Below the pieces are notes generated by a model that was not told where the DNA came from, ran no database searches, and saw only the letters and a list, made by a program, of their open reading frames with translations. A stretch of DNA of 48,685 nucleotides from a virus (taxonomy: Duplodnaviria > Heunggongvirae > Uroviricota > Caudoviricetes). Positions 40,341-40,604 of the stretch are shown piece by piece; positions within the stretch are counted from its first letter, which is position 1, and each line of letters starts with the position of its first letter. Position numbers and translations under genes: made by a program. The stretch is from IMG/VR virus record IMGVR_UViG_2541047926_000004, positions 1 to 48,685 of that record. One strand, given 5' to 3'.

Positions 40341-40370
40341 ATATTAACCCCTCTTTTTAGGGGTTAATAT
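40341..40370. terminator. bidirectional terminator hairpin between J and the convergent lipoprotein gene
   Basis: Perfect 12-bp stem ATATTAACCCCT/AGGGGTTAATAT with 6-nt loop. Confidence 0.55.
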
Positions 40371-40604
40371 TTAGTAGTCTATAACACAGTTAGAAGGGCT
40401 ACCGATTCGTCGGTATTCGTGATCAATCTCGTGACACCACTGCCCCGTCATTGGAAGGTTTTCGGTATCATAAATTAAAGAACCGTTACCATCTCGATCC
40501 AAAGGTTTTGGAATGACACCGGAATTTGGTTTACCGGTATTTAAACCATTACCACATGCAGTGAGGGACAGACATAATGGCAGCATAATTAGAGCGAGTT
40601 TCAT
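40371..40604 (-). CDS. hypothetical lipoprotein
   Basis: 77 aa; signal peptide MKLALIMLPLCLSLTAC with lipobox; AAAGGAG RBS. Confidence 0.6.
   Translation of the reverse strand: MKLALIMLPLCLSLTACGNGLNTGKPNSGVIPKPLDRDGNGSLIYDTENLPMTGQWCHEIDHEYRRIGSPSNCVIDY

Follow-up and report, generated by a model that had tools for sequence, protein, structure and literature searches.

The 77-residue lipoprotein encoded convergently behind the tail-tip gene J of an HK97-like prophage probably resides in the outer membrane and makes the porin LamB unusable for LamB-dependent phages. The window, the whole 48,685-nt stretch of DNA that was analysed, is an integrated HK97-like lambdoid prophage in which J is followed in order by the lipoprotein gene, stf, tfa, an inverted tfa'/fibre-tip pair and a serine invertase (Table 1). 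Sequence comparison places the lipoprotein in PHROG 12984, a small family with tight conservation, and work on a distant member established the family function in 2025. With the window copy the family of LamB-directed exclusion lipoproteins, known from non-lambdoid mEp phages, gains a member in an HK97-like lambdoid prophage.

Table 1. Features of the prophage and of the region between J and stf (window positions).
Feature	Position	Strand	Description
Host aldehyde-dehydrogenase-family gene	1-1254		
Tyrosine integrase	1459-2622	-	
HTH + S24-peptidase repressor	8746-9474	-	
J, tail-tip/host-specificity gene, HK97-type	36449..40339	+	1296 aa; Pfam FNIII-A_GpJ, Phage-tail_3, Phage_Tail_Tip
Perfect hairpin	40339..40372	both	14-bp stem, 6-nt loop; probable bidirectional intrinsic terminator
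Lipoprotein ORF	40371..40604	-	ATG start; 77 aa; MKLALIMLPLCLSLTACGNGLNTGKPNSGVIPKPLDRDGNGSLIYDTENLPMTGQWCHEIDHEYRRIGSPSNCVIDY
Lipoprotein stop codon	40371-40373	-	From the sequence
Mature lipoprotein (predicted)	40374-40556	-	61 aa of the lipoprotein ORF
Lipidated Cys17 (predicted)	40554-40556	-	Codon assigned by the lipobox motif
Signal peptide (predicted)	40557-40604	-	Residues 1-16 of the lipoprotein ORF; MKLALIMLPLCLSLTAC then GNG...
Shine-Dalgarno AAGGAG	40610-40615	-	5 nt upstream of the lipoprotein ATG
Sigma-70-like promoter (predicted)	40641..40668	-	TTGACT-16 nt-TATATT; promoter scan, 10/12 consensus matches
Truncated 5' remnant of a Queuovirinae-type lateral tail-fibre gene	40686..40793	+	MAIRLHGILVDGLNKPIVN...
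stf, HK97-like, functional	41110-42039		
tfa	42042-42485		
tfa', inverted	42457-43050	-	
Alternative fibre tip	43050-43547	-	
Serine invertase	43538-44128		Resolvase + HTH_7

The lipoprotein gene is genuine and not a chance ORF, because it gives a full-length match to the PHROG 12984 'lipoprotein' profile (E = 1.3e-56, positions 1-77/77), has 44 phage homologues and shows a dN/dS of ~0.02-0.06. The last value was obtained for the mature part by comparison of the window gene with four phage orthologues, and the mature lipoprotein is under strong purifying selection. A sequence-only reading of this DNA had described a 77-aa lipoprotein gene on the minus strand behind J, with a strong ribosome-binding site and an LTAC lipobox, and each element was borne out: AAGGAG lies 5 nt from the ATG, and L-T-A-C, at residues 14-17, fits the motif [LVI][ASTVI][GAS]C with Cys17 as the predicted lipidated residue and Gly, not Asp, at +2. 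A lipoprotein without Asp at +2 is sorted to the outer membrane. By this rule Gly at +2 therefore leads us to expect that the window lipoprotein is an outer-membrane protein.

Upstream of the gene, the promoter-like site lies ~37 nt from the ATG. Among all window-type loci the AAGGAG is kept and the -10 hexamer TATATT is identical, and the -35 hexamer occurs as TTGACT, TTTACT, TTAACT or TTAGCT. The lipoprotein gene is thus, as far as its predicted parts go, a self-contained moron with its own promoter, ribosome-binding site, coding region and a shared terminator, and we infer that it is expressed from the prophage. An 88-aa ORF at 40601-40867 on the minus strand, upstream of the lipoprotein, was rejected as spurious; it has no family match and overlaps both the promoter and the tail-fibre remnant. 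Searches of Pfam, NCBIfam and PADLOC gave no match to the lipoprotein, and a weak PHROG match to an Rz-like spanin (E = 0.25) covered the signal peptide only and was discarded. PDB sequence searches with the single lipoprotein and with the family profile returned nothing meaningful, and an AlphaFold2 model built from a 21-sequence alignment (mean pLDDT 57.6, pTM 0.32) was too poor for a fold search.

At 90% identity the family forms 22 clusters in a set of 5.8 billion proteins. A tblastn search of 50,697 phage records identified 44 true homologues, which include proteins of 83-96% identity in lytic Queuovirinae (Seurat, CAjan, 9g and the BASEL phages Bas21-24) and of 71-74% identity in EP23- and PNS1-like phages. 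Temperate, non-lambdoid mEp phages encode more distant members, 51% identical over the full length in mEp044 and mEp554; for mEp010 and mEp013 the tblastn alignment reached 71% over 52 residues, from PNSG to the C-terminus. Across 23 aligned sequences C17, C57, C73, PNSGV and GQWC are invariant. The residue at +2 is G, A or S in all family members aligned, and the signal peptide varies freely while the mature core is fixed.

Among 1.84 billion representatives clustered at 50% identity, the family profile matched five proteins; three are close family members, and no Cor-, Llp- or Rtp45-like relative was among them. The other two (P0025 and P0026; 4444 and 4467 aa) had 39 and 9 repeated weak matches falling at profile positions 6-42 and 34-63, which are probably a repeat or composition effect. 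A scan of GTDB genome contigs gave no confirmed relative. Two IMG/VR contigs (L035 and L036, about 3001-3204) encode divergent homologues, 52% identical and 72 aa long, that have a signal peptide but no lipobox Cys (…LLCTNAFANTNEPNSGVIP…) and no adjoining J gene; these may represent members of the family that are soluble in the periplasm.

Of 5426 complete E. coli genomes, 34-42 carry the gene; Nissle derivatives make up many of these, and the annotation is 'hypothetical protein' in all E. coli genome matches listed. At another locus (L018 2522-2751) the lipoprotein copy is frameshifted, with the frame lost after residue 54 and an intact J adjoining. The frameshifted product P0014 recurs on 29 contigs, complete E. 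coli chromosomes included; the lipoprotein gene therefore decays in some prophages. The family assignment gives a likely function to a gene called 'hypothetical' or 'lipoprotein' in dozens of lytic phages that are therapeutic candidates.

The comparison covered 34 loci, of which 30 are IMG/VR contigs, 3 are annotated phages and one is the window. The lipoprotein gene converges on a J-like gene in 32 of these loci, with a gap of 28-39 nt between the two stop codons that is occupied by a hairpin. The gap is 31 nt in the window, where positions 40339-40352 pair perfectly with 40359-40372 so that the stem overlaps the stop codons of both J and the lipoprotein gene. The hairpin folds at -21.5 kcal/mol (z = -6.35) on the plus strand and at -22.9 kcal/mol (z = -5.48) on the minus strand, and none of 200 shuffles folded as well. 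An earlier description of this element as a perfect 12-bp stem-loop was right about its presence and perfection and wrong about its length, the stem being 14 bp.

The accompanying suggestion that the hairpin could terminate both transcripts agrees with the retention of the structure in 32/34 loci and with the annotation of its equivalents elsewhere. The Seurat record describes a 'bidirectional terminator between end of gene and end of apparent moron', and the GenBank records of the mEp phages place Rho-independent terminators, predicted by ARNold, at the equivalent hairpin. The mEp-type hairpin is flanked by a clean A-run and a clean T-run, as is typical of intrinsic terminators that work in both directions; in the window the flanking U-runs are interrupted (UUAAUAUUU and AAUAUUUUAAU), and a terminator scan scored a terminator-like site on the plus strand only. 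We regard the window hairpin as a probable bidirectional intrinsic terminator. The predicted fold of every intergenic gap in the related loci is a hairpin with an energy between -10 and -22 kcal/mol, and the stems fall into three sequence classes (AACCCCTC/GAGGGGTT, AACCCCGC/GCGGGGTT and AGCCCCTC/GAGGGGCT), which therefore represent paired changes that preserve the stem, compensatory as judged by eye. RNAalifold applied to a MAFFT alignment of the hairpins, in which the stem classes are out of register, recovered only 3 invariant C-G pairs and no covariation score. The argument for conservation accordingly consists of the per-sequence folds and the compensatory differences seen by eye.

Comparison with HK97 delimits the inserted DNA. 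Over 1295 aa, tip included, the window J and HK97 J share 95.8% identity. Homology between the two phages stops at 40340 and resumes at 41029, with flanks matching at 93% and 90%, and HK97 is without the lipoprotein gene. The 688 nt at 40341-41028, which lie between J and stf, have no counterpart in HK97 and therefore constitute a moron in the strict sense of Hendrix and Juhala; the earlier placement in the lom slot of lambda is correct in the sense that the gene lies between J and stf. In HK97 (L037 4033-4158) the J stop is immediately followed by ACAAAACCCCGC, which is one arm, the left, of a related hairpin, and then by unrelated 17-nt inverted repeats (GGAAGGTGCGAATAAGT ... ACTTATTCGCACCTTCC), which suggests that the HK97 cassette was lost or replaced via a break inside the hairpin.

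The same segment is closely related to lytic phages. Nucleotide homology to 9g (89%) extends over window positions 39744-40772 and takes in the J tip, the hairpin, the lipoprotein gene, its upstream region and the first 29 codons of a lateral tail-fibre gene; homology to Seurat (88%) covers 40337-40742. The cassette of hairpin, gene, ribosome-binding site and promoter is thus common to lytic Queuovirinae at ~88-89% nucleotide identity. The last ~200 codons of J, from about 39744, form a low-GC receptor-binding module in common with 9g, and the base composition falls from 54% GC for J overall to 43.6% in its last 450 nt, 42.3% in the lipoprotein gene and 36.4% in the region upstream of it. The translated tail-fibre remnant matches the N-terminus of 9g gp70 in 27 of its initial 29 residues, after which the similarity is lost and a stop codon is reached. 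From its sequence the remnant looks like a recombination scar marking the right edge of the transferred cassette. The region documents, with the scar still visible, a discrete receptor-module cassette (J tip, terminator, exclusion gene and promoter) that is exchanged between lytic Queuovirinae and temperate lambdoids.

Two further features of the region were noted. Downstream of the moron, 41110-44128 has the layout of an invertible tail-fibre segment, in which stf and tfa face the inverted tfa' and alternative tip; a clean pair of crossover inverted repeats was not found there. Upstream, an 88-aa ORF on the plus strand (36128-36394), with no Pfam match, lies between the gpI homologue and J, at the position where HK022 carries its morons gp22 and srb.

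The receptors of the carrier phages bear on the function. Bas21-24 use LamB as terminal receptor (S5 table, PMC8594841), and mEp010, 013, 044 and 554 require it (PMC11893012), so that all eight family-carrying phages with a tested receptor are LamB users. Neither the OmpA-dependent mEp021 and mEp515 nor the LptD-dependent Queuovirinae Bas19, 20 and 25 are among the 44 tblastn homologues. HK97 and lambda adsorb to LamB (PMC6832061), and the window J tip is 84% identical to that of the LamB-dependent Bas22; because the window J resembles HK97 J and its tip resembles the Bas22 tip, the window prophage is also likely to use LamB.

Two classes of J tip, only about 25-30% identical to each other, accompany the family. 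Class A, ending in ...VSAQN..GA.I.SPT.IVS.GSGSF, is found in the window, HK97, 9g, Bas22 and the mEp phages, and class B, ending in ...E.YTN....GSW, in Seurat, Bas21 and EP23. Both lipoprotein subfamilies pair with both tip classes (counts 12, 5, 4 and 10), and LamB use is documented for both classes. The J tip of lambda is unrelated, yet lambda is excluded by a family member, Lpp010. The lipoprotein therefore tracks the receptor and not the tip sequence, as a receptor-directed mechanism predicts.

The tight linkage of the lipoprotein gene to the 3' end of J across phage groups could also be explained if the protein were a virion-assembly helper or a chaperone for the receptor-binding tip of J. 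We give this explanation hardly any credence. An exported lipoprotein would be in the wrong compartment for tail assembly, and the gene faces J from the other strand and has a promoter-like site of its own. In HK97 a 95.8% identical J exists without a lipoprotein gene, and frameshifted copies persist beside intact J genes, as at L018 and, for P0014, on 29 contigs.

Exclusion has been demonstrated for a homologue from mEp010. Plasmid expression of Lpp010 ('type-C', gp116 of mEp010) led to exclusion of mEp010, mEp044, mEp554 and lambda, and the LamB-dependent mEp013 escaped, as measured by plating only and not by adsorption (PMC11893012). The escape of mEp013 means that exclusion is not universal for LamB users. 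The authors of this study, the only functional one, stated that no lipoprotein of a lambdoid phage that excludes lambda was known (PMC11893012). By its locus tag mEp010_116 is Lpp010, and the diagnostic residues reported in PMC11893012 are present in the retrieved sequences (G2 for mEp013, S11 for mEp044, H38 and I40 for mEp554). The window lipoprotein is 51% identical to Lpp010 overall (BLASTP, E = 2e-30). The proposal of a receptor-blocking superinfection-exclusion moron made by the sequence-only reading is thus upheld on grounds of homology, and it is from this 51%-identical homologue that the window protein would derive its assigned exclusion function. The BASEL authors likewise described the locus as encoding exclusion factors against different porins (PMC11990801).

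The position of the gene in lambda's lom slot, together with a promoter-like site of its own that would allow expression from the prophage, could instead point to a host-benefit or virulence moron of the Bor or Lom kind, which would change the outer membrane for reasons unrelated to phage entry. This is very improbable. The lipoprotein has no similarity to any Pfam, NCBIfam or PADLOC family, it is strictly linked to LamB-type J tips, and it has a homologue with a demonstrated exclusion phenotype (PMC11893012). Most carriers are moreover obligately lytic, for which a benefit to the lysogen makes no sense; with most homologues in strictly lytic Queuovirinae and Dhillonvirus-like phages, the virulence role that had been offered as an alternative found no support.

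In the exclusion mechanism that we favour, the lipoprotein would be exported and lipidated at Cys17, and its +2 residue, Gly and not Asp, would direct it to the outer membrane, into the inner leaflet, where it would render LamB unusable as terminal receptor for the prophage's own kind and probably for lambda. The result in a lysogen would be superinfection exclusion; in lytic carriers the cassette would also save progeny phages from being wasted on debris and on cells that are already infected. Solved complexes of Llp with FhuA and of Rtp45 with LptDE show binding at the periplasmic face that prevents attachment of the receptor-binding protein (PMC12685063), and by analogy the window lipoprotein may bind LamB from the periplasmic side. 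HK97 and lambda use LamB without the lipoprotein gene, which is therefore dispensable.

A lipoprotein gene 100% identical to that of the window is present in E. coli Nissle 1917, where a defective lambdoid prophage located between yecD and yecN (L043, NZ_CP022686.1 426.5-470 kb) carries it together with several pseudogenes, including portal and tail assembly protein T. Nissle cells reportedly bind and inactivate lambda, removing it from supernatants in a maltose-enhanced manner and without infection (PMC5987069). The gene, if expressed there, therefore does not abolish lambda adsorption: either it is poorly expressed in Nissle, or its subfamily permits lambda binding, or exclusion takes effect after binding. 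The last of these corresponds to a different mode of action, in which attachment to LamB stays intact, tail-tip opening or DNA passage is blocked, and lysogens become phage sinks. The Nissle observations and the scoring of Lpp010 by plating rather than adsorption (PMC11893012) both speak for such a block. We nonetheless consider it unlikely, since the Nissle data are indirect, with 24-h incubations and no lamB knockout in Nissle, since the published pr primers do not map to the lipoprotein-bearing prophage, and since the solved analogues Llp and Rtp45 prevent attachment of the receptor-binding protein (PMC12685063). The specific version in which docking is allowed, channel opening or DNA transit is blocked from the periplasm and Nissle is an irreversible sink for lambda appears distinctly improbable; if true, it would be the 'other factor' behind the lambda resistance of Nissle and a new way of disabling a receptor that belongs to neither the TonB nor the Lpt system. 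We draw no link between the Nissle lipoprotein gene and the 'prophage 3'/pr locus: the pr repressor primers of PMC5987069 have no match in the lipoprotein-bearing prophage, which thus appears to differ from the 'prophage 3' repressor locus of that study.

Under the preferred reading, exclusion at LamB, strains that carry the lipoprotein gene should be predictably resistant to phages targeting LamB, a practical point for the design of phage cocktails and for engineered Nissle strains.

The sequence-only reading had also compared the gene with the Cor lipoproteins. The comparison holds for the kind of function and fails for membership in the Cor family, the likely target being LamB and not FhuA. 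Were the protein a Cor-family member, it would inactivate FhuA as in phi80, N15, HK022 and T1. Both proteins have 77 aa and a lipobox and are encoded downstream of J, and the body of the window J is 95% identical to the J of the cor+ phage HK022; this similarity ends at aa 1145, short of the receptor-binding end, and none of the family-carrying phages with a tested receptor uses FhuA. A full-length hhalign comparison with Cor gave 89.5% probability, owed to the signal peptide and lipobox only, and the mature domains gave 0.2%, no better than shuffled Cor. BLASTP of the mature lipoprotein against Cor found nothing at E <= 1000. Homology to Rtp45 was rejected in the same way (85% at full length, 2.5% for the mature domains). 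In the mature-domain controls with 20 shuffles, the Cor and Rtp45 scores lay within or barely above the shuffled range. A Cor-family protein acting on FhuA has, in our estimate, next to no chance of being the correct identification.

Because the mature domains are unlike those of Cor and Rtp45 and no PDB match was obtained, the resemblance to Cor, Llp and Rtp45 is, as judged from sequence comparison, one of kind and not of ancestry. Like the window protein, Cor of HK022, phi80, N15 and T1 is a small outer-membrane lipoprotein encoded after the J/receptor-binding region; its gene is a moron, and by record annotation it excludes phages through inactivation of their outer-membrane receptor. Its mature part has no detectable relation to the window lipoprotein, it acts against FhuA-dependent phages, and the HK022 cor gene lies on the same strand as J, about 1 kb downstream. 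Llp of T5 (FhuA) and Rtp45 of Rtp (LptDE) are likewise small lipoproteins encoded beside the receptor-binding gene, Rtp45 also on the strand opposite J and with a mature mass of about 6 kDa, but they share no sequence similarity with the window lipoprotein and are directed at other receptors. LamB is a trimeric 18-strand porin, for which, to our knowledge, no mechanism of the Llp/Rtp45 type has been described.

Close relatives are found among the Queuovirinae (Seurat gp20, CAjan, 9g gp69 and Bas21-24) and the EP23/PNS1 phages, which carry the same subfamily as the window; the Seurat record already names its lipoprotein gene an 'apparent moron'. These Queuovirinae and Dhillonvirus-like carriers are obligately lytic, whereas the carrier of the window cassette is temperate and integrated, and the cassette closes with a truncated piece of the Queuovirinae lateral tail-fibre gene. 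Lpp010 shares with the window lipoprotein the pattern PNSGV.P...G.L..TE...GQWC...R.G...NC...Y and the three Cys residues, and its gene is likewise convergent behind J, with a terminator hairpin and LamB-dependent cognate phages. It belongs to the other subfamily, having 82 aa against 77 and the linker AVDKEAALHNL after the Cys in place of GNGLNTGK, and its carriers are non-lambdoid temperate phages with a J of 1700-1830 aa, in contrast to the HK97-like lambdoid that carries the window gene.
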